Positions 1-26,553 of a stretch of DNA of 32,000 nucleotides are shown here, piece after piece; position 1 is the first letter of the stretch; every line of letters begins with the position of its first letter. This DNA comes from an uncultured Bacilli bacterium (GTDB lineage Bacteria; Bacillota_I; Bacilli_A; RF39; UBA660): NCBI GenBank assembly GCA_910586295.1, contig CAJUGE010000062.1, forward strand, positions 1-32,000, written 5' to 3'. Position numbers and translations under genes: made by a program. The notes beneath the pieces are model-generated. The model was not told the origin of the DNA. It was given only the letters and a program-made list of their open reading frames with translations, and did no database searches.

Positions 1-140
1 AAGTTACTTATTAACATATTAGTTGCATTGTATTTTCCTGTAGATATAGTAAATACACCATATGTTAATCCTATTACTGTGGTTAGTACACAAGTCATTA
101 TTAAGCTTAAAGTTACTTTACTTTTTATTCTTCTTCTCAT
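1..140 (-). CDS. Partial CDS, N-terminus only, running off the left edge. A basic N-terminus is followed by a hydrophobic segment, so this is a membrane or secreted protein.
   Basis: Too short in the window to appear in the ORF track. The reverse strand has ATG at 140..138 preceded by a GAAGGAGAG RBS. It reads MRRRIKSKVTLSLIMTCVLTTVIGLTYGVFTISTG... and stays open to base 1. Confidence 0.4.
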   Translation of the reverse strand, partial: MRRRIKSKVTLSLIMTCVLTTVIGLTYGVFTISTGKYNATNMLISN

Positions 141-4246: not shown

Positions 4247-5004
4247 ATTGATTTCACCAAGCTTTCATATGATAGATTGTAGTCTCTTATTAGTTCATAA
4301 TCTTTTAAGTATTTATTTAGTTGAATAATAAATGGTAGGCTATACCCTAATCTTTTCATGAGTTTTTCTTCGTTTAGAACACTCATAGTGTTTCCACTTA
4401 GTAATACTTTCTTATCACTAGTGATTATTATGTCAGTTCCAAGTAAAGTTTCTTCTATTTCTGTTGTAAAGTTTAATATTATACCATTGTTTTTTGTGTA
4501 TTGTTTGAGTGCTTTGTAAACTTTTTCTTTGTCGTTTTCGTCAAGTAGTGACAACATATTGTCTATTACTAATATTCTTGGATTTGTTACGAGACAGCTT
4601 GCTAGAGAAAGTTTCACTTTGGCAGAGTCACTTAAACTTTTAGGACTTTTTTCCAAAACTTTTGTTAAGCCAAACATTATAGATATACTTTCTATTCGAC
4701 TCATCATTTCATGTTTTGGAATAGCTAGGCTTTCTAAACCATAGGCTAGTTCATCTCTTACTGTTTCTGCTAAAAATGTTTCAAACATGGAAAAGCAAGA
4801 AAACGTTACTAGTCTTCTTAGTTTATCAATAGTTTTGTTAGTTATTTTTGCATAGTTAATAACAATATATTCGTTAGGAGTTTTATACATTAGATTATCT
4901 ACTATCTCTTTGTTTTTTTCTCCTAAAATTGTTATAAAATCCCCTACATTAGCACCAAAACTCATTTCGTCGTTCTCGATGTATTCAAAATATTTAAAGT
5001 TCAT
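4237..5004 (-). CDS. ecfA1: ECF transporter ATPase subunit homolog (EcfA1 position) with degenerate catalytic motifs
   Basis: ORF track. Collinear with EcfA1 (AETVRDELAYGLES, LPFIIQL tail). The Walker A region reads GEKNKEIV, the signature LSDSA, Walker B ILVIDN (catalytic E is N), and the H-loop FTTE. Confidence 0.65.
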   Translation of the reverse strand: MNFKYFEYIENDEMSFGANVGDFITILGEKNKEIVDNLMYKTPNEYIVINYAKITNKTIDKLRRLVTFSCFSMFETFLAETVRDELAYGLESLAIPKHEMMSRIESISIMFGLTKVLEKSPKSLSDSAKVKLSLASCLVTNPRILVIDNMLSLLDENDKEKVYKALKQYTKNNGIILNFTTEIEETLLGTDIIITSDKKVLLSGNTMSVLNEEKLMKRLGYSLPFIIQLNKYLKDYELIRDYNLSYESLVKSIWI

Positions 5005-5022
5005 TTATTACCACCTAGGTTT

Positions 5023-5052
5023 ATTATACTATGCTAATGTAGTTTTAGTCAA
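5023..5052 (-). promoter_or_regulatory. Sigma-A type promoter of the ecf-truA operon
   Basis: Reverse strand: TTGACT (5052..5047), an 18-nt spacer, then TATAAT (5028..5023). An AGGTGG RBS and ATG 5004 follow. The -35 element overlaps the stop codon of the upstream MutS-like ORF. Confidence 0.55.
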
Positions 5053-5459
5053 AGTGTATTTAGAAATTCTAATAGTTTGTCATAATTTACAAAGCTAGTT
5101 TTAATTTTGTCTTCTACTAAAGATTTTATTTCGCTTAGTTTTCCATCTGTTTCATAATTGCTCATTGCACTTGTTTTGTAGTCTTTGTATGTATTTTCTC
5201 CAGTTGATGTGTAGTTATTTATGTCACTTTCGTTATTTACTACTACTACACTTATTCCAAGTCTTGTGAGTTTACTTACGACACTTGCGAATACTGATAT
5301 TGGAAAACAAACCCTGCCTTCTTTGACTAGATAACCAAATAATCCCCAGAGAAGTATTGCATCGTTATCGAATGTTTTGTAGAAATTTCCACTTTTTACT
5401 AATACTACTTTTTCTTCGTTTTGCATTTTTATTAATTTGTATAAACTTTCTTTTGTCAT
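5049..5459 (-). CDS. Small MutS-domain-I-like protein (136 aa), probable accessory ORF of the RT cassette
   Basis: ORF track. VVLVKSGNFYKTFDNDAILLWGLFGY...RVCFPISVFASVVSKLTRLGISVVVV follows the MutS N-terminal mismatch-binding domain pattern (GDFYE-F--DA......L-----------P-------Y---L---G--V). It starts 12 nt after the RT stop and has its own GAAAGGAAA RBS. Confidence 0.55.
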   Translation of the reverse strand: MTKESLYKLIKMQNEEKVVLVKSGNFYKTFDNDAILLWGLFGYLVKEGRVCFPISVFASVVSKLTRLGISVVVVNNESDINNYTSTGENTYKDYKTSAMSNYETDGKLSEIKSLVEDKIKTSFVNYDKLLEFLNTL

Positions 5460-5470
5460 ATTTTTCCTTT

Positions 5471-6598
5471 CTATAATTCCATCATTTTTTGATAAAGGCT
5501 AGTGTTACATTTTTGCAAGTAGCCTTTGTAGCTAGATTTACTTTTTTCATATTTTTCGTAATCAAATCTTTTTAAGTTTTTTAGTCTTCTTTTTATTCTT
5601 TTTGCTGTTTGAGCGTTATATCTTATATATAGTTTAGTAAATTTTTTGTTGTTTTTAAATGTATAACCAAGAAATGATACTCCATTAGATAGCCTATATA
5701 AGTTGCTCTTCTTATTGGTTTTAAGTTTTAAGCTTTCTATTTTTTCTTTGATTTTTATGTATCCTTCTTTAAGTCTATCTTTGTCAGTGTCCATTATTAT
5801 AAGGTCATCCATGTAGCGTATGTAATTTTTAAATTTTAATTTTTCTTTTATGTAATGGTCTACTTCACTAAGGTAATAGACTGCTAGTATTTGGCTTGTC
5901 ATATTTCCGATTGGTAAACCTTTTTTGTTATAATACATTGGAATTGAGTCTAAGGTTTCGATTTTGTGCTTTTTTGAATTTTCTGCTATGTTAAGGTTAT
6001 TTACTCTTCTTTTTTCTTTTGTTACTAATCGTTTTACTTCGTTATTTATGTAAGCATAGTTTGTAGTGTCTATGATATCGTCTATTATCTTGAGAGCGTA
6101 TTTATCTTTTATTTTTTTTCTTACTAGCATTTTACATATTTCGTGGTCTATGTTATAAAAGTATTTAGATATATCGATTTTCAAAATATATATTTCTTTT
6201 TTCTCTCTAAATAGTCTATTTGAATATTTTAAGAATAGTTTAAAAGCATGTGCACTTCCTTTTTCGTATCTTGTTGCAACGTTAGAATCAATAAGTGAGG
6301 AGTCTAATGTAGGTAATAGTATGTATTTTGCTACTAAGTGATTTACTATTTTATCTTCTATTTTTTCACTCATGATTAATCTGTATTTTGGCTCGTTTAT
6401 TATGAATATTCTGTATTTATCAAATTTATAGTTCAATGTTTCTAACTTTTTTATTATTTCTTGAATGTTTTGGTTTAAATTTAGTGAGAAACGATATACT
6501 TCTTTTTTGTTTTTACAGTTGTGTTTGATTGTATTATACATTTCTAATGCGTGTTCAGTTTTTAATATTTCTTTATATAGATGATTCTTTCTCTTCAT
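5471..6598 (-). CDS. Reverse transcriptase, diversity-generating-retroelement (DGR) type (375 aa)
   Basis: ORF track. Motifs seen: FIINEPKYRLI...EDKIVNH (RT1/2), LKIDISKYFYNIDHE (motif A), GLPIGNMTSQILAVYYL (motif B, with the I/LGxxxSQ signature typical of DGR RTs; 5891..5911), YIRYMDDLII (motif C, YMDD at 5804..5815) and FLGYTF (motif E). Confidence 0.85.
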   Translation of the reverse strand: MKRKNHLYKEILKTEHALEMYNTIKHNCKNKKEVYRFSLNLNQNIQEIIKKLETLNYKFDKYRIFIINEPKYRLIMSEKIEDKIVNHLVAKYILLPTLDSSLIDSNVATRYEKGSAHAFKLFLKYSNRLFREKKEIYILKIDISKYFYNIDHEICKMLVRKKIKDKYALKIIDDIIDTTNYAYINNEVKRLVTKEKRRVNNLNIAENSKKHKIETLDSIPMYYNKKGLPIGNMTSQILAVYYLSEVDHYIKEKLKFKNYIRYMDDLIIMDTDKDRLKEGYIKIKEKIESLKLKTNKKSNLYRLSNGVSFLGYTFKNNKKFTKLYIRYNAQTAKRIKRRLKNLKRFDYEKYEKSKSSYKGYLQKCNTSLYQKMMEL

Positions 6599-6926
6599 TG
6601 TTTATCCATCCATATGTCATTTTTCTTATTTCATTTAAGCAGTTGATAAATGAGTCAAAGCGTTTTTTCTTTATTATTCCTTTGTCTAGTATGCGACCTA
6701 TGTAGTAATCAATCAAACTTATATTGGTTAGTATTTCTTTTTGATATTTGCTTCTTATGTTTCCTTTGTTTAGATTTGCACGTATGCAGTTTTCTATTAG
6801 TGAGTACATGTTGTCTTCTAATTTTATTTTTAGGGCTAAGTGTATTTTGGGAAATGATGTAAATACATAGTTTTCGGCATAGTCAAGTAGCCATTTGACT
6901 TTGTCTAGTATTTTAAATTCTTTCAT
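6573..6926 (-). CDS. avd: Avd-like four-helix-bundle protein (117 aa, accessory variability determinant / 23S-IVS protein family)
   Basis: ORF track. Size, basic charge and the pattern ...FPK..L.....L......I.E.I..AN........Q......L...........I.KM..GW match Avd-type proteins. It overlaps the RT start by 26 nt. Confidence 0.65.
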   Translation of the reverse strand: MKEFKILDKVKWLLDYAENYVFTSFPKIHLALKIKLEDNMYSLIENCIRANLNKGNIRSKYQKEILTNISLIDYYIGRILDKGIIKKKRFDSFINCLNEIRKMTYGWINNEEKESSI

Positions 6927-7009
6927 GTTCTCCTTTCTTTATTACATCTTCTATAATAAAAGAAAGATAGTAATAAGCTTACTACCTTTTTTACTACCTT
7001 TATATAAAA

Positions 7010-7038
7010 ATTTTATCATAATTTGTCTGATAACGCAA
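7010..7038 (-). promoter_or_regulatory. Sigma-A type promoter of the avd-RT-MutS-like cassette
   Basis: Reverse strand: TTGCGT (7038..7033), a 17-nt spacer, then TAAAAT (7015..7010) with an extended -10 TG (TGATAAAAT). This leaves a leader of about 75 nt containing a hairpin at 6966..6986. Confidence 0.5.
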
Positions 7039-7134
7039 TAGTCATTTGTTTAGTGATTTCATAAAATTAATTTTATGTTCTTGCTTTCTTTCTTATATTT
7101 TTATAATATAAGCTATAGGAGGAGGTTTTGCTTT

Positions 7135-7866
7135 ATGAGAGATGTGTTGTTATTATATTCTGGTGGGCTTGATTCATTATTATCTCTTTGTCGTTTGGTT
7201 AGTGAGGGTTATAATGTGTATTTTATTCATTTTGATAATGGAAGTAGTATAGGTATAGAAAGAGTTAGTGAAGGAGCTAAAATTATTGAAAAGCGTCTTG
7301 AAGGAAGGGCTAGATATCTAGGCGTTGTTTCGACAGTTGGAATTTTTAATAGCTTTAAGCAAATTGAAAATTTAAGTTTTTCTGATATTGCTAATAAGTA
7401 TGGGAATGCTAGTATTTCACAATATCAATGTTTACTTTGTAGAAGCGCTATGTATGAAAGAGCTATTGGAATTGCACTCCAACATAATATTCACTATATT
7501 GCAGAGGGTGCTAGAGTATGTCAGAAGTTTGCTATAGAACAAGCACCTATGATAGAAGAATATAGGAGACTTGTAGAAAGATATGATATTAAACTTCTTA
7601 CACCTGTATGGGATTTAAAAAATGATTATGATAGACTTCTAGAGATTTCAGATTGGGGGTTTGATTTAACGCCTTATGAGGGACGATGTTTTTTAGGATA
7701 TCCAATTGACGAAAATCATCCTGTAGATAAAAATGTCGTTAATGATATAGTTAGAATGTTTAGAGATTTAGTACTTCCATGTATAGAAAAAGATATGAAT
7801 AGTGAGTATAGAATTGGACATTATAAACATTTGCAATTAGGACACGATAAAGTCTTTTGGCTATAA
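7135..7866 (+). CDS. PP-loop (adenine nucleotide alpha-hydrolase superfamily) ATPase, QueC/TtcA-like (243 aa from ATG 7135)
   Basis: The track ORF starts at 7075, but ATG 7135 has an AGGAGGAGG RBS about 8 nt upstream. N-terminal LLLYSGGLDS is the SGGxDS PP-loop. The later CLLCRSAMYERAIGIALQHNIHYIAEGAR resembles the CxxC..R....A.....I..G segment of TtcA/TilS-type enzymes. Confidence 0.7.
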   Translation: MRDVLLLYSGGLDSLLSLCRLVSEGYNVYFIHFDNGSSIGIERVSEGAKIIEKRLEGRARYLGVVSTVGIFNSFKQIENLSFSDIANKYGNASISQYQCLLCRSAMYERAIGIALQHNIHYIAEGARVCQKFAIEQAPMIEEYRRLVERYDIKLLTPVWDLKNDYDRLLEISDWGFDLTPYEGRCFLGYPIDENHPVDKNVVNDIVRMFRDLVLPCIEKDMNSEYRIGHYKHLQLGHDKVFWL

Positions 7867-7868
7867 AG

Positions 7869-7896
7869 AAAATGCTTTACTTATGTAGAGCATTTT
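7869..7896. terminator. Bidirectional terminator hairpin between the PP-loop gene and the sigma factor gene
   Basis: AAAATGCTTTAC / GTAGAGCATTTT stem (one mismatch) with a TTAT loop, flanked by T-rich sequence on both strands. Confidence 0.5.
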
Positions 7897-8496
7897 TTAA
7901 TTATTAAGTTTTAATTTTATTTTTATTCTTTGTATAGTATTTTCTATGCTTCTTGTAGTCTTTTCGAGTATTTTTGATATTTCTTTGTTTGATTTGCCGT
8001 CTAATTTTAGTTCATATACTTTTAGTTCAAAGGGAGTTAGAAGTTTTACTATTTCTACTCTATTTTCTAGGTCTATTAATTTTATTTCGGGAGTTATATC
8101 GTTTCTTTCTACAACGCTATACAAGCTTTGTTGTTCTTCTATAGAAAAAGTATCAAGAGAAATAGCACTGTTAAGTGAATGATATTTGATTCTACTATGA
8201 GATTTTATTATGTCTTGTATATATCTTTCTATTAAAATGTTAGCATATGTTCTAAATGAAGCTTCTTTTATACTGTCATAAGTTTTGACAGCTGTTGTAA
8301 GCCCTATTAAACCTTCTTGTTTTAAGTCTTTTATTTCTAGACCAATGCTATTCGCTTTATTTTTATATTTGTTTATTACGTTTTGTATTACAGAGTTGTA
8401 TCTTTCTATTAGTGTTTCAAATGCTTGTTCATCGTTTTCACTTATTAAAAATAATAGTTCATTATCGTCCATATTTTTGTGCATCTTTACCTCCAT
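7897..8496 (-). CDS. sigH: RNA polymerase sigma-70 family factor, SigH-like
   Basis: ORF track. Region 2 (LKQEGLIGLTTAVKTYD...SFRTYANILIERYI) and a region 4 HTH (GKSNKEISKILEKTTRSIENTIQRIKIKL). It lies directly after rlmB, as sigH does in Bacillus-type gene order. Later in-frame ATGs could be the true start. Confidence 0.7.
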   Translation of the reverse strand: MEVKMHKNMDDNELLFLISENDEQAFETLIERYNSVIQNVINKYKNKANSIGLEIKDLKQEGLIGLTTAVKTYDSIKEASFRTYANILIERYIQDIIKSHSRIKYHSLNSAISLDTFSIEEQQSLYSVVERNDITPEIKLIDLENRVEIVKLLTPFELKVYELKLDGKSNKEISKILEKTTRSIENTIQRIKIKLKLNN

Positions 8497-9182
8497 GTTG
8501 CTACTTCATAGATTATTATGCCTGCCGCGACTGAAGCATTCAGGCTATTTACTTTTCCTTTGATAGGAATACTTGCTATTATATCACAAGTTTCTCTAAC
8601 TATGTGTTTTAAACCAAATCCTTCACTTCCAATTACTAGTGCAGTTTTTCCATCATAGTCAATTTCTTTATAATTTTTACCATCTGCATCTGTTCCTATA
8701 ACCCAATATCCTAATTTTTTTAAGTTTGTTAGTGTATTTCTTAAGTTTGAGACTTTTACAATTTTTACGTTTGCTAGTGCACCAGAGGATGTTTTTACTA
8801 CCGCGGGTGTTATTTCCGAATTACCTTTGTTTGGAATTATTATGTAGTCTACTCCTGCACATTCACATGTTCTTATTATAGCGCCAAAGTTTCTAGGATC
8901 TTCAATATGGTCTAATACGACTACAAAGTTGGCGGATTCATCTTTTTTTATAGTTTCAAAGTCAAGAAATTTATAATCATCTATTTTTATTATTATTCCT
9001 TGATGAGGTTCTGTGGTCATTAAAGACATTTCGCTTTGTTTTTTTGTTTGTGGGGTTATGTTTTGTCTTTTTATTAGATTTAATAATTCTTGGTTGTTAA
9101 ATGTTTCTAATAAGTAGATTTCCTGTATTTTTAAGTTACTGTTTAATATTTCTCTTGCAACATTTTTTCCGTATACTAGCAT
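8487..9182 (-). CDS. rlmB: 23S rRNA (guanosine-2'-O)-methyltransferase RlmB / TrmH-family SPOUT methyltransferase
   Basis: ORF track. SPOUT motifs VVLDHIEDPRNFGAIIRT, LVIGSEGFGL and IPIKGKVNSLNASVAAGIIIYE. Confidence 0.8.
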   Translation of the reverse strand: MLVYGKNVAREILNSNLKIQEIYLLETFNNQELLNLIKRQNITPQTKKQSEMSLMTTEPHQGIIIKIDDYKFLDFETIKKDESANFVVVLDHIEDPRNFGAIIRTCECAGVDYIIIPNKGNSEITPAVVKTSSGALANVKIVKVSNLRNTLTNLKKLGYWVIGTDADGKNYKEIDYDGKTALVIGSEGFGLKHIVRETCDIIASIPIKGKVNSLNASVAAGIIIYEVATWR

Positions 9183-9212
9183 AAGACCACTCCTTTAAGT
9201 TTATATTATATA

Positions 9213-10097
9213 TTATTTTTCTAGTTCTGTTAAGTATTTTTTTGCTTTTGTTGCTGATAAGGCACCTTCACTAGTAGCTGTTACAATTTGGTATAAATCT
9301 TTTTTTATTATGTCTCCACACGCAAATAGTCCAGGTACTAAAGTTTCTGTTTCTTTTGTTTCTATATATCCAGTTGATTCTAAAATATTTAGATTACTTA
9401 GATATTCTGTCATTGGAGAATACCCTATATACGAAAATATTCCATCTACTTTTATAGTATTATTTGGAGTTATTACTTTATAGGCTTCATTTTCTGTTAT
9501 GACATCTTTTATTTCTTCTCCTTCGATGATAGTTATGTTTTCTTTGTTTTTAGCGGTTTCTACCATTTCTTCATCAGCTTTTACTTCGCTTCTTGCAAGT
9601 ATTGTTAGGTGGTTTGCAAATTCGCTTAGATATATTCCTTCTTCAAATGCTGAGTTTCCTGCTCCGATTACTAACACATCTTTTTCTTTGTAAAGTGGAG
9701 CATCACATATAGCACATCTTGATATTTTAAGATCACTTAGTTTTTCTTCTAAGTCTAGTTTTCTTGGTTGACGTCCCCCAGCTAGGATTACTGTTTTGGC
9801 TTCATATTTATTTTTGTTTGTTTCTATTTTAAAGATATTGTTATCTTTTGTTATTTTTTTTACTTCTTCTATTTTGTATTCTACTTCATTATTTTTTACA
9901 TGTTCAAACATTTTCATTGCTAGCTCTGGGCCTGTAATATTGTCGTATCCTAGATAGTTATCTACTAAGTTAGTTATATTTATTAGCCCACCTGGTGTAT
10001 TTTTTTCTAATATTATTGTTTTTAAACCACTTCTTTTTGCATATATTCCTGCACTCATTCCTGCAGGTCCCATTCCTACGATTAAACAGTCGTACAT
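9213..10097 (-). CDS. trxB: Thioredoxin-disulfide reductase
   Basis: ORF track. FAD site IVGMGPAGMSAG, redox-active CAICD, NADPH site VIGAGNSAFEEG and the C-terminal GLFACGD. Confidence 0.85.
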   Translation of the reverse strand: MYDCLIVGMGPAGMSAGIYAKRSGLKTIILEKNTPGGLINITNLVDNYLGYDNITGPELAMKMFEHVKNNEVEYKIEEVKKITKDNNIFKIETNKNKYEAKTVILAGGRQPRKLDLEEKLSDLKISRCAICDAPLYKEKDVLVIGAGNSAFEEGIYLSEFANHLTILARSEVKADEEMVETAKNKENITIIEGEEIKDVITENEAYKVITPNNTIKVDGIFSYIGYSPMTEYLSNLNILESTGYIETKETETLVPGLFACGDIIKKDLYQIVTATSEGALSATKAKKYLTELEK

Positions 10098-12250: not shown

Positions 12251-12450
12251 TTCGAATTAGCCAGTGTGTCCACTTCGGAAAAGCCAATATATATACTTCG
12301 AATTAGCCATAACATATAATAAGAAAAAGTTAGAGTTTTTACCTTCTAACTTTTACAATACATTTTTCAAGTATTTTCCTGTGAAACTGTCTGGATTCTT
12401 TGCTACTTCTTCTGGGGTACCTGTGCAAAACTATATTCCCACCTAAGTCT
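12251..12450. repeat. Direct repeat copy A (about 200 bp), pairing with 13794..13992
   Basis: The core 12296..12450 aligns to 13838..13992 with 3 substitutions and a 1-nt indel. The outer 45 bp is more diverged but keeps the doubled motif TTCGAATTAG(C/T)C. Confidence 0.85.
12353..12450 (-). pseudogene. Duplicated 3'-terminal fragment of uvrA (last ~32 codons plus stop), non-functional
   Basis: Nearly identical to uvrA 13896..13992, but with an extra A (GCAAAACT vs GCAAACT) and no upstream coding continuation. A copy of the uvrA terminator hairpin follows. Confidence 0.8.
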
Positions 12451-12507: not shown

Positions 12508-13734
12508 TTATTTCTCATTGTTTTTTGCATTTAAAACCGACGACACTGGTATTATAAAATTATTTTCGTCTAAATGCATTAACGTATCATATAAGCATAT
12601 TATGCCACCCTCACCTAGCTCTTTAGTGCCAAGTTTTAATTTTTCAAACTTTTTTATCATTTCTTTTGTAGGAGATGCAGTCTTTTTTATTTCAAAAGGA
12701 TATAATTTATTATTTTTAAATATTATTAAATCTATTTCGTTTTTATCTTTATCTCTGTAATAAGATATATTTGGTTCGATTCCTTCAGAGTTATATGACT
12801 TAATGATTTCGCTTACTATATATGTTTCTAAGTAATGTCCAGATGTTTCACTTAATTGAAGTTCTCTAGCAGAGTCCCATCCTGCTAAGTACGCACATAG
12901 TCCTGTATCCATAAAAACTATTTTTGGCATGTGTGTCACTCTTTTTAATTTTGAATTCATATATGGTTCAAGTAAATAAATAATTCCACTTGTAACTAGA
13001 ACATCAACCCAAGTCCTAACAGTATTATCAGACACACCTATATCATTGGCAATATTTGTGTAATTAAGTTGTTCTCCATTTCTTGAGGCCATTGCTATTA
13101 TAAATTTTCTAAATAATAATAAATCTTTTACATCTACTTGTTCTTTCACATCTCTAGAAATATATGTTTTAACATAACCTTCAAAAAATTTTTTTCTATT
13201 CATGTTTGGAATATTATAGAGTTCTGGATATCCGCCTTTAAATATTAATTCAAATAATTCATTAACATTTATTTCAGGAGTTTTCTTTAGATTAGTGGGA
13301 TTAAATAAAACTTTATCTTTAATGTTTTGGTTTATTTCTCTATAAGTTAAACTATTTAAATTTACTATTCCTACTCTACCTGCTAAACTTTCTGTAACAT
13401 TTTTCATTAGTACAAATTGTTGTGAACCTGTTAACCAATACATTCCTCTTTCATTTTTTTCGTCTACTATCATTTTTATATACGGAAATAATTCAGGAGC
13501 GTATTGCACTTCATCTATTAATAGTGGATAAGGATGCTCTTTTAAAAATAGTTTTGGATCTTCTTTGGCCTTTTGTCTTAGAATTTTATCATCCAATGTT
13601 ACATAATTCATGTTTTTAGGCATATTCTGTTTTAATAATGTGGTTTTACCTACTTGTCTAGGGCCTGTTACTAATAATACTCTAAATGTTTCTGATATAT
13701 TTTTTACTGTGTTTAATGCTTCTCTTTCTATCAT
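12508..13734 (-). CDS. AAA+ ATPase with a C-terminal DUF4143 / PD-(D/E)xK-like domain (COG1373-type)
   Basis: The track ORF starts at TTG 13788; ATG 13734 (MIEREALN...) is more plausible. Walker A LLVTGPRQVGKTTLL, Walker B LLIDEVQYAP, and C-terminal EIDLII...PFEIKK. Confidence 0.8.
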   Translation of the reverse strand: MIEREALNTVKNISETFRVLLVTGPRQVGKTTLLKQNMPKNMNYVTLDDKILRQKAKEDPKLFLKEHPYPLLIDEVQYAPELFPYIKMIVDEKNERGMYWLTGSQQFVLMKNVTESLAGRVGIVNLNSLTYREINQNIKDKVLFNPTNLKKTPEINVNELFELIFKGGYPELYNIPNMNRKKFFEGYVKTYISRDVKEQVDVKDLLLFRKFIIAMASRNGEQLNYTNIANDIGVSDNTVRTWVDVLVTSGIIYLLEPYMNSKLKRVTHMPKIVFMDTGLCAYLAGWDSARELQLSETSGHYLETYIVSEIIKSYNSEGIEPNISYYRDKDKNEIDLIIFKNNKLYPFEIKKTASPTKEMIKKFEKLKLGTKELGEGGIICLYDTLMHLDENNFIIPVSSVLNAKNNEK

Positions 13735-13793
13735 ATTATCACTCTTTCTACACCAAATAATAACATATAATTTGTAATTAATCAACAATTAAC

Positions 13794-13992
13794 TTCGAAT
13801 TAGTCGTGATTGTTACTTCGAAAAAGTCAACATATTCACTTCGAATTAGTCATAACATATAATAAGAAAAAGTTAGAGTTTTTACCTTCTAACTTTTACA
13901 ATACATTTTTCAAGTATTTTCCTGTGAAACTGTCTGGATTCTTTGCTACTTCTTCTGGTGTGCCTGTGCAAACTATATTCCCACCTAAGTCT
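13794..13992. repeat. Direct repeat copy B, containing the authentic uvrA 3' end and terminator
   Basis: See 12251..12450. Confidence 0.85.
13861..13896 (-). terminator. Rho-independent terminator of uvrA
   Basis: AAAGTTAGA/TCTAACTTT 9-bp stem with a 10-nt loop, followed on the minus strand by TTCTTATT. A copy is present in repeat A. Confidence 0.6.
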
Positions 13993-23236: not shown

Positions 23237-24886
23237 CTATCTTACTATTGCTTTCTTTCCGTGGAATACTATAACTATCTCTTTTATGTTTGTTACTTTA
23301 TCAAGTATTAATTCTTTATAGTATTCTTTCTCTTTCATTTGGGTTATGCCTTCCCTTGCTTTATTTTCCATGTTCTCTTCACTATCACTTATTTTTACTT
23401 CTATTACTATACCTACGCTTTTGTCTTTTCTTTCTATTAACAAGTCACATCTTTCTGAACCTGTTTCTCTGTTTGACTTTGTAATATAGTTTTTGTTTAG
23501 TGCCCAGGAAAATAGTCCATATAAGTATCCATGATAGTAACTTTCTAGTGTGTCATGATAACTCATTCCCATTATTGTACTATTTATGAACTTTTCTATT
23601 TTTTCTTTTTCTCCATTTATCATGTTGTTTTTTAATTCTCTAAAGGTATCTTCTGTTTCTATGTCTTTGTTAAAGGCTATTGTTTGTATTATGTTTATTA
23701 ATTCGTTTCTTACTTCGTCATTTGGAACTTTAAAATAATTAGTTATTACATCATCTTCGTCTATTTCTTGTTTTGAGAATGTTAAGTAACCACTAAATAA
23801 TAGTAAGTTTAGTATACTGTTAAAGTCATTGTACATTTCTATATTTTCGTAGTTTAAACCTTCTCTATATGTGAATGCAATTGAATTACTTTGTAGCAGA
23901 GTTTCTAATTTTATCTTTTCATCTTCTTTTAAGTTTATTAGTAAGTCTTTTAATAGTTTATTACTTCCTGTGTTTATCCAGTATGGTTTTAGTACTCCAC
24001 TTTCTGCATAGTTTAGTATACTCCAAGGGTTATATATCTTCGTACTATCTATGTTATAACCATCATACATTTCACTTACTTTGTCTGTTAGTTCTAGACC
24101 GTAGTATTCTAATAATTCTTTTGTTTCATTTTTTGTGAAGCCAAAATATTCTCCATATCCTTTGCTCATTACATCATATATTTTAGGATTATTGAATGTA
24201 CTAAATAGACTTTCTTTTGCTACTCTAAGTACTCCTGTTAGTACTCCCATTTTTAATGAGTCATTTCCTTTTAGACTGCTAGATAGTATTGGTCTAAATA
24301 GTTCCATTACTTCTTCATAATATCCATTTGCATGGCCTTCATTAATTGGGGTGTCATATTCGTCTATCAATACTACGACTTTTTCTTTGTAGTAGTTCTC
24401 TAACATTTTTGTTAGAAAGGTTATTGAATTTTGTAGTTCTTCGATACTTGCTTCTCTATTTTTAATAGAATCATAAATTTTTAAATTATCTAAATCTTCT
24501 ATACTTTCTCTTATATATAATTTTGATTTATATGCATCACTTATAATAATTTTCAACTTATTATAAATGGTTTCATATGAACTTCCTTTTAATTCTTTAA
24601 AGTCTAGTCTTATTACTGGATATTTTCCAAAATAACTAAAGTATTCACTTTCACTTATGTATAAATCATTAAATAAGTTTTTGTTACTTTCTTTGGTTTC
24701 TATGTTAAAAAAGCAATCTAGTGTTGATAATAATAGGCTTTTTCCAAAACGTCTTGGGCGTGTATATAAAGTTACTTCTGCATTTGTTTTCATTAAATCT
24801 TCTATAACCATCGTCTTATCTACATAGTAGCAATTTTCTTCTATTATCTTTTTAAAGTCTGTCTTACTTATTGGTATCGATTTCAT
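23237..24886 (-). CDS. AAA-ATPase-like N-terminal domain plus C-terminal PD-(D/E)xK nuclease-like domain protein (549 aa), copy 1
   Basis: The track ORF starts at GTG 24895 inside the GGAAGGTG RBS; ATG 24886 (MKSIPIS) is preferred. Motifs: YVDKT, RPRRFGKSLLLS (P-loop-like), VVVLIDEYDTP (Walker B-like), and C-terminal CDLLIE...IVIEVK (D..ExK). Confidence 0.8.
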   Translation of the reverse strand: MKSIPISKTDFKKIIEENCYYVDKTMVIEDLMKTNAEVTLYTRPRRFGKSLLLSTLDCFFNIETKESNKNLFNDLYISESEYFSYFGKYPVIRLDFKELKGSSYETIYNKLKIIISDAYKSKLYIRESIEDLDNLKIYDSIKNREASIEELQNSITFLTKMLENYYKEKVVVLIDEYDTPINEGHANGYYEEVMELFRPILSSSLKGNDSLKMGVLTGVLRVAKESLFSTFNNPKIYDVMSKGYGEYFGFTKNETKELLEYYGLELTDKVSEMYDGYNIDSTKIYNPWSILNYAESGVLKPYWINTGSNKLLKDLLINLKEDEKIKLETLLQSNSIAFTYREGLNYENIEMYNDFNSILNLLLFSGYLTFSKQEIDEDDVITNYFKVPNDEVRNELINIIQTIAFNKDIETEDTFRELKNNMINGEKEKIEKFINSTIMGMSYHDTLESYYHGYLYGLFSWALNKNYITKSNRETGSERCDLLIERKDKSVGIVIEVKISDSEENMENKAREGITQMKEKEYYKELILDKVTNIKEIVIVFHGKKAIVR

Positions 24887-24903
24887 TTGTAACACCTTCC
24901 TTT

Positions 24904-26553
24904 TTATCTTACTATTGCTTTCTTTCCGTGGAATACTATAACTATCTCTTTTATGTTTGTTACTTTATCAAGTATTAATTCTTTATAGTATTCTTTCTCT
25001 TTCATTTGTGTTATGCCTTCTTGGGCTTTATTTTCCATATTATCTTCATCAGATACTTTTAATTCTATTATTATTCCTAGGGTTCTGTCCGTTTTCTCTA
25101 TCATTAAGTCAAATCTTCCTAGTCCTGCTTCTCTGTTTGATTTTACTATATAATTTTTATTTAGAAATCCTCCAAATAATCCTATCATATATATGTGATA
25201 AAATGCTTCTACTTCATCATAATAACTTGTTGTGTTTAATGACATATTTATGAATTTTTCCATGTATTCTTTATTTTCGTTTACTATTGATTTTAAGAAT
25301 TCTTCATATTCTGGGGTTCTCATTATATCTGTTTTAAAGGATATATCTTGTACTATGCTTAATATTTCTTTCTTTACTTCGTTATTTGGGATTTTAAAGA
25401 AGTCTATGTTTTCTTCACTTATTTCACTTATTATACTTTTATCATATGTTAAGTATCCACTAAATAATAGTAAGTTTAGTATACTATTAAAGTCATTATA
25501 TGTATCTATATTTTCGTAGTTTAAGCCTTCTCTATATGTGAATGTTATGCTTTCGTTTTTAAGAAGTGTTTCTAGTTTTATCATTTCATCTTCGTTAAGG
25601 TTTATTAGTAAGTCTTTTAATAGTTTATTACTTCCTGTGTTTATCCAGTATGGTTTTAGTACTCCACTTTCTGCATAGTTTAGTATACTCCAAGGGTTAT
25701 ATATCTTCGTACTATCTATGTTATAGCCATCATACATTTCACTTACTTTATCTGTTAGTTCTAGACCATAGTATTCTAATAATTCTTTTGTCTCATTTTT
25801 TGTGAAGCCAAAGTATTCTCCATATCCTTTACTCATTACATCATATATTTTAGGATTATTGAATGTGCTAAATAGACTTTCTTTTGCTACTCTAAGTACT
25901 CCTGTTAGTACTCCCATTTTTAATGAGTCATTTCCTTTTAGACTACTAGATAGTATTGGTCTAAATAGTTCCATTACTTCTTCATAATATCCATTTGCAT
26001 GTCCTTCATTAATTGGAGTGTCATATTCGTCTATCAATACTACTACTTTTTCTTTGTAGTAGTTCTCTAGCATTTTCGTTAGAAAGGTTATTGAATTTTG
26101 CAGTTCTTCAATGGAACATTCTCCACTTTCTATTAAATTATAGTTTTTTAAATCATTGGCATTTGCTATAGATTTCTTTATGTATGACTTTTCACGATAA
26201 ACAGTACTTATAATAATTTTCAACTTATTATAAATGGTTTCATATGAACTTCCTTTTAATTCTTTGAAATCTAGTCTTATTAGTGGGTATTTTCCAAAAT
26301 AACCAAAGTATTCACTTTTACTTATATATAAGCCATCAAATAAGTTTTTGTTACTTTCTTTGGTTTCTATGTTAAAAAAGCAATCTAGTGTTGATAATAA
26401 TAGGCTTTTTCCAAAACGTCTTGGGCGTGTGTATAGTGTTACACTAGCACCTGTTTTTATCAAATCTTCTATAACCATCGTCTTATCTACATAATAATAA
26501 TTTCCTTCTATTACTTTTTTAAAATTATCTACACTTATTGGTATCGATTTCAT
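24904..26553 (-). CDS. AAA-ATPase-like plus PD-(D/E)xK nuclease-like domain protein (549 aa), copy 2
   Basis: ORF track. Same motifs as copy 1 (RPRRFGKSLLLS, VVVLIDEYDTP, FDLMIE...IIIELK). It lies 17 nt upstream of copy 1. Confidence 0.8.
   Translation of the reverse strand: MKSIPISVDNFKKVIEGNYYYVDKTMVIEDLIKTGASVTLYTRPRRFGKSLLLSTLDCFFNIETKESNKNLFDGLYISKSEYFGYFGKYPLIRLDFKELKGSSYETIYNKLKIIISTVYREKSYIKKSIANANDLKNYNLIESGECSIEELQNSITFLTKMLENYYKEKVVVLIDEYDTPINEGHANGYYEEVMELFRPILSSSLKGNDSLKMGVLTGVLRVAKESLFSTFNNPKIYDVMSKGYGEYFGFTKNETKELLEYYGLELTDKVSEMYDGYNIDSTKIYNPWSILNYAESGVLKPYWINTGSNKLLKDLLINLNEDEMIKLETLLKNESITFTYREGLNYENIDTYNDFNSILNLLLFSGYLTYDKSIISEISEENIDFFKIPNNEVKKEILSIVQDISFKTDIMRTPEYEEFLKSIVNENKEYMEKFINMSLNTTSYYDEVEAFYHIYMIGLFGGFLNKNYIVKSNREAGLGRFDLMIEKTDRTLGIIIELKVSDEDNMENKAQEGITQMKEKEYYKELILDKVTNIKEIVIVFHGKKAIVR

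Follow-up and report, generated by a model that had tools for sequence, protein, structure and literature searches.

The subject of this work is the cassette avd-RT-msl, encoded on the minus strand of a 32,000-nucleotide (nt) stretch of DNA from an uncultured gut Bacilli bacterium (contig CAJUGE010000062.1, positions 1 to 32,000; GC content 27%); the whole stretch is referred to below as the window, and positions are those of the window unless a locus is named. With some confidence, we interpret the cassette as the core of an active, vertically inherited diversity-generating retroelement (DGR) of the type that carries the MutS-like accessory protein Msl, with its parts dispersed and with the gene for its template RNA unlinked from the reverse transcriptase (RT). 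We also lean, by a little, towards regarding it as the first documented DGR in which the RNA gene holding the template repeat (TR) is unlinked from both the RT and the targets. What is new here is a DGR architecture with dispersed parts; the kind of system and Msl were already known.

According to this interpretation, the template RNA gene, consisting of the TR and a structured RNA of about 120 nt, would be located elsewhere in the genome and would act in trans. RT and Avd would bind the template RNA and make an adenine-mutagenised cDNA, which would then replace the variable repeat (VR) of the target gene or genes. Msl, which corresponds to the mismatch-binding domain of MutS and has none of its other domains, would probably shield the densely mismatched cDNA/VR heteroduplex from host mismatch repair. 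In Bacteroides, host MutS lowers DGR retrohoming 5-10 fold (bioRxiv 10.1101/2024.11.15.621889).

The avd-RT-msl Cassette as a DGR Core

The gene avd (6926-6573) encodes a protein of 117 amino acids (aa) with a pI of 9.3 (9.28) that is predicted to form a four-helix bundle, and overlaps by 26 nt with the RT gene (6598-5471), encoding a 375-aa RT of the DGR clade; the stop codon of the latter is followed after 11 nt by the start of msl (5459-5049), whose 136-aa product (pI 6.3) is a stand-alone protein resembling domain I of MutS. An earlier reading of the window, made without database searches (hereafter the original prediction), had described such a DGR cassette, and its open reading frames (ORFs), motifs and 26-nt overlap were all recovered, as was the overlap of the msl stop codon with the -35 element of the ecfA1 promoter (TTGACT-18-TATAAT; 5052-5023, minus strand; sigma-70 score 11/12). 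This promoter was kept in the orthologs, and no terminator-like site was found between msl and ecfA1 when positions 4900-7200 were scanned. The cassette is a single operon lying directly upstream of ecfA1-ecfA2-ecfT-truA.

The RT presented the motifs NEPKYRLI, LPIGNMTSQ (motif B) and YMDD in place, and kept the residues aligned to R74 and I181 of the Bordetella RT (bRT), which we take to be fidelity determinants. It scored 59.6 bits against RVT_1, and its closest structure in the PDB was 8ub7_A, the Bordetella DGR RT (E = 7e-28, vs. 5e-9 for group II RTs). Homologs of this RT number thousands, some of them fused to MutS_I. Membership of other RT families was not supported: the score against the group II RT/maturase model TIGR04416 was 93 bits for a cut-off of 300, covering the palm and thumb only, and scores against the NCBIfam models for retron St85 (35 bits vs. 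235) and Drt3a (45 bits vs. 200) were likewise far below the thresholds. An Rfam scan of the window gave no match, neither a group II intron nor an msr/msd-like RNA. The RT matches in PADLOC corresponded to the generic RT core (RT_UG17, 82 bits; Drt3a, 55 bits) and are non-discriminating, since PADLOC contains no DGR RT model; no PADLOC system was matched by Avd or Msl. In the profile check that the original prediction had proposed, the UG/Abi and retron matches were generic and below family cut-offs.

The avd product matched the Avd families PF22296 (bAvd; 32.5 bits, E = 1.3e-7) and NCBIfam NF033474 (34 bits, E = 2.7e-8) below their curated cut-offs, and its sequence profile found no match in the PDB; fold comparison was used instead. 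A single-sequence AlphaFold2 model (predicted local distance difference test score, 84) was a four-helix bundle, which superposed on Bordetella Avd 4dwl with a template modelling (TM) score of 0.80-0.87 and a root-mean-square deviation of 1.8 Å, and Foldseek matched the same model to the Avd chains of 4dwl and 8ub7 (TM score 0.75-0.87). The predicted fold supports the Avd assignment originally made. The window avd was also orthologous to the avd of complete DGRs; this gene has been called 'very poorly conserved' (Wu et al., 2018; PMC5758913).

The msl product scored 30.6 bits against PF01624 (MutS_I), exceeding the cut-off of 20.6, and a profile built from 11 Msl orthologs had solely MutS/MSH domain I as top PDB matches (1ewq, E = 3e-4), in agreement with the identity first proposed. 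The G-x-F-Y motif, with the mismatch-stacking Phe, was invariant across the Msl sequences, and the Glu of Phe-X-Glu was missing from every Msl, whether from a TR-bearing DGR or not. Wu et al. (2018; PMC5758913) introduced Msl as an accessory of DGRs (Architecture D), and it occurs in Bacteroides DGRs (bioRxiv 10.1101/2024.11.15.621889); the original prediction had also mentioned a MutS-like accessory ORF in DGR surveys. Judged by homology and predicted fold, Avd, RT and Msl are orthologous to the proteins of complete DGRs, and on this basis the cassette is a genuine DGR core, with an RT of the DGR clade and a basic four-helix Avd encoded together with it.

The Target Gene and Its Copies

No target gene had been seen in the original prediction, which described a purely housekeeping or divergent neighbourhood. 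Both statements turned out to be artefacts of the window edge, because the gene runs off the window. The 5' end of a target gene, copy A, is located at positions 140-3 of the minus strand (within window positions 1-140; first 46 residues MRRRIKSKVTLSLIMTCVLTTVIGLTYGVFTISTGKYNATNMLISN); its start lies on the same strand as msl, 4.9 kb further downstream, and its remainder extends past the window edge. The core and this target are kept apart by the ecf operon, truA and four small genes, some eight genes in all. The complete target, of 970 aa, was found on the orthologous contig L001 (L001:16459-19371), whose RT was 100% identical to that of the window; there, too, it shared the strand of msl and was located 5 kb downstream. 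Its product has a signal/anchor peptide as well as a VR-bearing domain at the C-terminus, and the C-terminal 256 aa displayed 44% identity (E = 3e-51) to the VR domain of the target of L012, a DGR locus with a TR/VR pair, in an alignment that spans the proven VR. These features identify the 970-aa product as a predicted surface protein of the DGR-target type.

A second copy of the target, found in L038 and L041, had another promoter, another signal peptide and another upstream neighbour. When the junction was compared (L001:16459-16600 vs. L038:374-470 and L041:285-366), the signal peptides of the copies read MRRRIKSK... and MKRSKSK..., and beyond ...KYNATNM the two sequences were identical. 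It is at this junction that the window terminates, as do three of four orthologous contigs obtained from other samples; therefore, the genome holds at least two target copies, and assemblies break there.

Target homologs were placed differently in other lineages. In L007, avd was preceded, at a distance of 126 nt, by an N-terminally truncated homolog of 425 aa without signal peptide (L007:8269-9546), apparently a fossil of the ancestral target-TR-avd layout after deletion of the TR. The homolog of L008 was located 6 kb upstream, on the other strand, and L005 presented a multi-domain target ortholog downstream. Neither target nor TR was found within ±10 kb in L006.

Composition and Variability of the Variable Repeat

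The target gene of L001 had a GC content at third codon positions (GC3) of 0.19 and an A content of 0.43, whereas its VR-equivalent segment (132 nt; L001:19162-19293) reached a GC of 0.53 and a GC3 of 0.57 with 0.17 A; the GC3 of the preceding 300 nt was 0.20. The same GC island was present in L041 (VR at L041:2985-3113) and L008. Over these VR-equivalents GC was 0.49-0.53 and A 0.17-0.18, and the VR-like segments of the window species and L008 showed GC3 values of 0.55-0.57 in genes of GC3 0.19. Such values match the proven VRs of relatives (GC 0.50-0.63, A 0.08-0.22), whose genomes, at 25-29% GC, are equally rich in AT. In the truncated copy of L007 the VR-like segment had decayed to GC3 0.21, i.e., to the genomic composition; therefore, such GC islands decay on the timescale that separates the lineages.

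Variability was concentrated in the same segment. Three same-species variants, falling in one 90% cluster, were 99-100% identical over their first 600 residues, but about half of their core VR positions differed (counted from the alignment). L040 and L037a were distinguished by 45 nt within the 35 VR codons, against 7 nt over the 264 codons that precede the VR. The VR differences of the window species favoured codon positions 1 and 2, while position 3 dominated upstream of the VR. A 29-nt flank on the 3' side of the VR was identical in L001, L037, L039 and L040; outside the C-terminal domain, the target genes of the last three were about 47-53% identical to that of L001. Taken together, the VR-equivalent looks recently rewritten.

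The original prediction had left two alternatives: a DGR acting on a remote target with an unusually placed TR, or an RT module repurposed for another function. The first one, with a remote or non-adjacent target, is favoured, because a target lies 4.9 kb away and a second copy elsewhere, and because the VR-like segment looks recently rewritten; the second found no support.

DGR Relatives and the TR-Associated RNA

Loci with TR/VR pairs were found among the relatives of the window RT at 54-57% identity (L012, L014 and L015) and also at 43% (L009) and 30% (L011). The mismatches between TR and VR fell on TR adenines in 24/24 cases in L012, 26/26 in L014, 15/16 in L015, 12/13 in L009 and 10/12 in L011. 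The gene order of L012, L014 and L015 was target-Msl-TR-Avd-RT. The closest TR-bearing relatives, L017 and L018 (RT identity 63-64%), presented the order avd-RT-msl, as in the window, and L018 also the ecf synteny; both carried AAC-rich TRs plus a structured RNA upstream of avd. In L018 two TR units seemingly precede a promoter-like sequence belonging to avd itself (as judged by eye), and the TR RNA may therefore already be a separate transcript. The comparison of homolog neighbourhoods suggested in the original prediction thus gave a split result: distant relatives keep TR and VR, and no TR was found at the loci of the close orthologs L005-L008.

The structured RNA, of about 120 nt, lay directly 3' of the TR and was kept across loci whose RTs were 55-65% identical to that of the window, with compensatory double changes in 11 of its 17 base pairs. 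It was located at L012:9040-9160, L015:9390-9514, L017:193-312 and L019:3096-3223, with three copies in L014 and two in L018. A covariance model (R1) comprising the 3' end of the TR and the downstream RNA was built from these relatives, the training sequences scoring 77-122 bits. TR plus RNA units were tandemly duplicated in L018 (two units, 292-551 and 655-908), and L014 held three (7334-7689, 7778-8128 and 9179-9539). The duplicated copies in both loci had diverged at non-A positions, which suggests several templates per RT.

One further locus, L019, encoded Avd plus a natural RT::Msl fusion of 584 aa (L019:3291-5373) among housekeeping genes. It retained the TR-adjacent RNA, but the TR was reduced to a short A-poor remnant (the region concerned is L019:3020-3223), and no VR was found on its 11-kb contig; possibly, this represents an independent decay of the TR with retention of the core. 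Additional RT::Msl fusions were P0057, P0073, P0078, P0086, P0092 and P0096.

Absence of a Linked Template Repeat

In accordance with the original prediction, no second copy of any cassette segment was found in the 32 kb by BLAST, and no TR in or beside the cassette. BLAST searches of the window with the VRs brought up neither a match nor another VR-like copy, R1 reached no more than 12 bits over the whole window, with filters off as well, and an island scan revealed no GC- or AAC-rich island. Four further lineages (L005-L008; RT identity 76-87%) had avd-RT-msl immediately upstream of ecfA1, and R1 found no TR/RNA on any of the orthologous loci L001-L008, nor anything around the other target copies in L037-L039. 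Likewise, no TR was found in the flanks of the target copies, namely in the 67 nt downstream in L001, within ±10 kb in L037 and in about 1 kb downstream in L039; by BLAST and reading, the stretches adjoining the target contained none either, in L041 (365 nt on the upstream side and 162 nt on the downstream side) or in L040 (10 kb and 211 nt, respectively).

The search was extended to collections of other sequences. When metagenomes were scanned once for the TR-associated RNA, 17 matches were obtained, 16 of which were L012-type DGRs or fragments of their contigs and none of which came from the clade of the window. At L020, which R1 does not match, and at L029 (24.5 bits) no cassette gene lay nearby, and these two were set aside as chance. 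In a collection of viral contigs neither the VR 3' flank nor the RT was found. From three VRs we infer a putative TR sequence, ATGAGTCCGWATAACTTCAACWGGAATAGTAGCGCTAATAACAACGCGAACGTGTTCAATGTGAACGGTTCTAATAACCCTGGCAACTTGAATAACAACAATGTCAACAATAGTGGTANCGTCGTTCGTCC; a protein search with the peptide that it would encode gave nothing.

Other places for a TR were considered and rejected. A TR hidden in the coding sequence of the cassette was discarded, as synonymous sites vary freely (proportion of synonymous differences, pS, 0.44-0.70) and there was no VR match. The spacer of 208 nt between avd and the divergent PP-loop ATPase gene was discarded as well; it contains only promoter, hairpin and ribosome-binding site (RBS), and in L008 it totals 104 nt. 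A weak R1 match at L007:523-640 fell inside a small ORF (288-602) read as SpoVS-like.

Selection on the Cassette

Among the TR-less lineages synonymous divergence (dS) was saturated, and the ratio of nonsynonymous to synonymous divergence (dN/dS) ranged from 0.02 to 0.10 for avd, from 0.06 to 0.16 for RT and from 0.05 to 0.24 for msl. All three ORFs were intact in at least seven lineages. Avd was 89-97% identical at the aa level, compared with 57-88% for ecfA1. Between the window and L007, identities were 90% for avd, 77% for RT and 73% for msl vs. 57% for ecfA1 and 60% for ecfA2; for the lineages farthest apart, the values of Avd (89-90%) and RT (76-77%) exceeded those of the adjacent ECF ATPases (57-65%), and in the closest pairs RT and Msl were about as conserved as ecfA1 and ecfA2. 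Purifying selection on the cassette is strong, at a level that equals or exceeds that of the flanking ecfA genes. Such conservation marks the avd-RT-msl core as functional, by this indirect measure, and not decaying.

Weighing of the Interpretations

Several observations weigh against a dispersed DGR that works with an unlinked template. DGRs have a TR adjoining the RT or an accessory gene, and the window has none; the absence of the TR from the window and its orthologous loci is genuine. Every true match of the metagenome scan on a long enough contig had the RNA directly beside msl-avd-RT, and we know of no described DGR with a TR unlinked from its RT. As to the adenine specificity of the VR variation, no cognate TR being found, a comparison of the VR with the non-cognate TRs of L017 and L018 gave an enrichment at A sites of just 1.1-3.9 fold. 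Part of the between-strain variation covers the whole C-terminal domain and includes a length difference of 4 aa, so paralog recombination contributes to it. Finally, L037, L039 and L040 contribute as target loci, their organisms being only putative carriers of the cassette.

Some of these facts would suit an exapted core, in which the clade's ancestor lost its TR, mutagenic retrohoming stopped, and the core was kept for defence, repair-linked cDNA synthesis or regulation. Neither TR nor TR-associated RNA was present across five lineages, in which the cassette has nevertheless remained under long-lasting strong purifying selection; L006 is without target and TR within ±10 kb; L019, with its RT::Msl fusion, has a short A-poor TR remnant and no VR on its 11-kb contig; and, at a generic level, the RT resembles profiles of defence RTs, UG17 (82 bits) among them. 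We nonetheless hold exaptation to be unlikely. If retrohoming had stopped before the lineages split, a split old enough for dS to be saturated, then all VRs should resemble that of L007, the sole clearly abandoned copy, decayed to GC3 0.21. The VR-like segments of the window species and L008 are instead fresh in composition (GC3 0.55-0.57 in genes of GC3 0.19), and genes that are otherwise near-identical have hypervariable VRs. In addition, Avd and Msl gave no PADLOC match, and the keeping of a mismatch-binding accessory suits heteroduplex formation.

An orphan cassette appears distinctly unlikely. Here, the VRs would be diversified by another, complete DGR, on the chromosome or on a prophage, and avd-RT-msl would be redundant or would serve other targets; about 10% of DGR-bearing genomes hold several DGRs (Wu et al., 2018), no TR is linked to the window RT, and the 29-nt VR 3' flank identical at four loci suggests a shared or mobile template. 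However, purifying selection on the cassette is at least as strong as that on the flanking housekeeping genes, and homology connects the VRs with the TRs found in L017 and L018, the closest relatives of this very RT. The L007 target fossil, moreover, sits immediately upstream of avd, the ancestral DGR position, and the viral contig collection yielded neither RT nor VR flank.

Very improbable is that the clade has no dedicated TR and that Avd-RT-Msl templates its cDNA otherwise, e.g., on the mRNA of paralogous targets; were this true, target copies would rewrite each other, and TR-free targeted hypermutation would be a host function. Finally, we give almost no credence to a decaying remnant of an inactivated DGR, which would explain the missing TR and would not be rare (over half of the candidates of Wu et al. 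were discarded as such; PMC5758913) but is contradicted by the purifying selection on the cassette genes, with ORFs intact in at least seven lineages, dN/dS of 0.02-0.24 at saturated dS, Avd 89-97% identical where ecfA1 is 57-88%, and an intact catalytic YMDD and motif B.

Comparison with Known Systems

The dispersed Msl-type DGR that we favour is closest to the Msl-containing DGRs of Architecture D, which are found in Legionella and Bacteroides (Bfr, Bth and Bun), with which it shares a basic Avd, a DGR-clade RT and a small near-neutral MutS-I protein. As in that architecture, where the MutS-like ORF ranges from 112 to 283 aa, Avd and Msl co-occur and HRDC is lacking; the target is a predicted surface protein with a C-terminal variable domain ending in ...VRPV.SLKS, and it shows homology to targets of relatives in which A-specific VRs are proven. 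In contrast with Architecture D, the window has no TR or TR-adjacent RNA beside RT and avd, its order is avd-RT-msl instead of (target)-msl-TR-avd-RT, its target is separated from the core by the eight or so genes mentioned above, and the core is vertically inherited, held in a fixed chromosomal position and unusually conserved.

The DGR of phage BPP-1 (8ub7-8ube, 4dwl) resembles the window element in its homologous RT (E = 7e-28) and in the four-helix-bundle fold of Avd, and the relatives of the window RT carry the covarying RNA 3' of the TR, at the position of the Bordetella Sp. BPP-1 itself is phage-borne, with the order target-avd-TR-brt and no Msl, whereas the window element is cellular, without relatives in the viral contigs, and its TR and Sp-like RNA are not in cis. 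As to UG17/DRT10, Drt3a, AbiK and retrons, they have the generic RT core in common with the window RT; unlike in these defence RTs and retrons, scores were far below the cut-offs, no effector partner was present, and the partners are Avd and Msl.

Leader, Neighbouring Genes, and Other Features of the Window

The operon promoter and 5' leader occupied positions 7038-6927 (minus strand), with the -35 element TTGCGT at 7038-7033, an extended -10 element TGATAAAAT at 7018-7010, and an RBS. The transcribed leader was 75-80 nt long, which agreed with the 75 nt or so originally estimated. It contained a hairpin at about 7001-6958 (minus strand), with arms AAAGGTAGT...ACTATCTTT followed by a T-run. 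The -10 element and both hairpin arms were invariant in five lineages while the adjoining sequence varied, the folding z-score of the leader was -2.9, and the hairpin of L018 (L018:1005-1035) kept one pair through a C-G to T-A change (by eye). This element looks like a candidate leader terminator/attenuator or protein-binding site.

The divergent neighbour of avd, a ThiI/QueC-like PP-loop ATPase gene (7135-7866, plus strand; ThiI 30.6 bits, partial match), was rejected as a component of the system, being absent in L005-L008. It was found solely in the window's own species, with a shorter gene call in L004.

Two repeated regions of the window were also evaluated and rejected as parts of a DGR. 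A direct repeat of 158 nt (12272-12429 and 13815-13972; 95% identical) was not a TR/VR pair, its mismatches not being A-specific; it is the duplicated 3' end of uvrA, surrounding an AAA_14/DUF4143 ATPase gene (12508-13788). Duplication and gene were present in the window and L001 and absent in L002-L004, which points to an insertion confined to certain strains that came with a long target duplication. The tandem paralogs of 552 and 549 aa (23237-24895 and 24904-26553, minus strand) were discarded as targets, being AAA-ATPase_like plus PDDEXK_9 proteins. Blocks of 144-300 nt were 91-95% identical between them, separated by more diverged stretches, suggesting recent gene conversion.

Implications for DGR Biology

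DGR surveys (myDGR, DGRscan, MetaCSST and Roux et al., 2021) require a TR/VR pair close to the RT. Cassettes of the window type are, by construction, silently discarded by such standard finders, because the element is defined by TR and VR near the RT. The R1 RNA and the natural RT::Msl fusions offer handles on the role of Msl. If the TR is unlinked, as we propose, the numbers of the DGR census would be underestimates, recognition between RT-Avd and the RNA would have to operate fully in trans in vivo, and the element would be a stable host gene set and not a mobile cassette.

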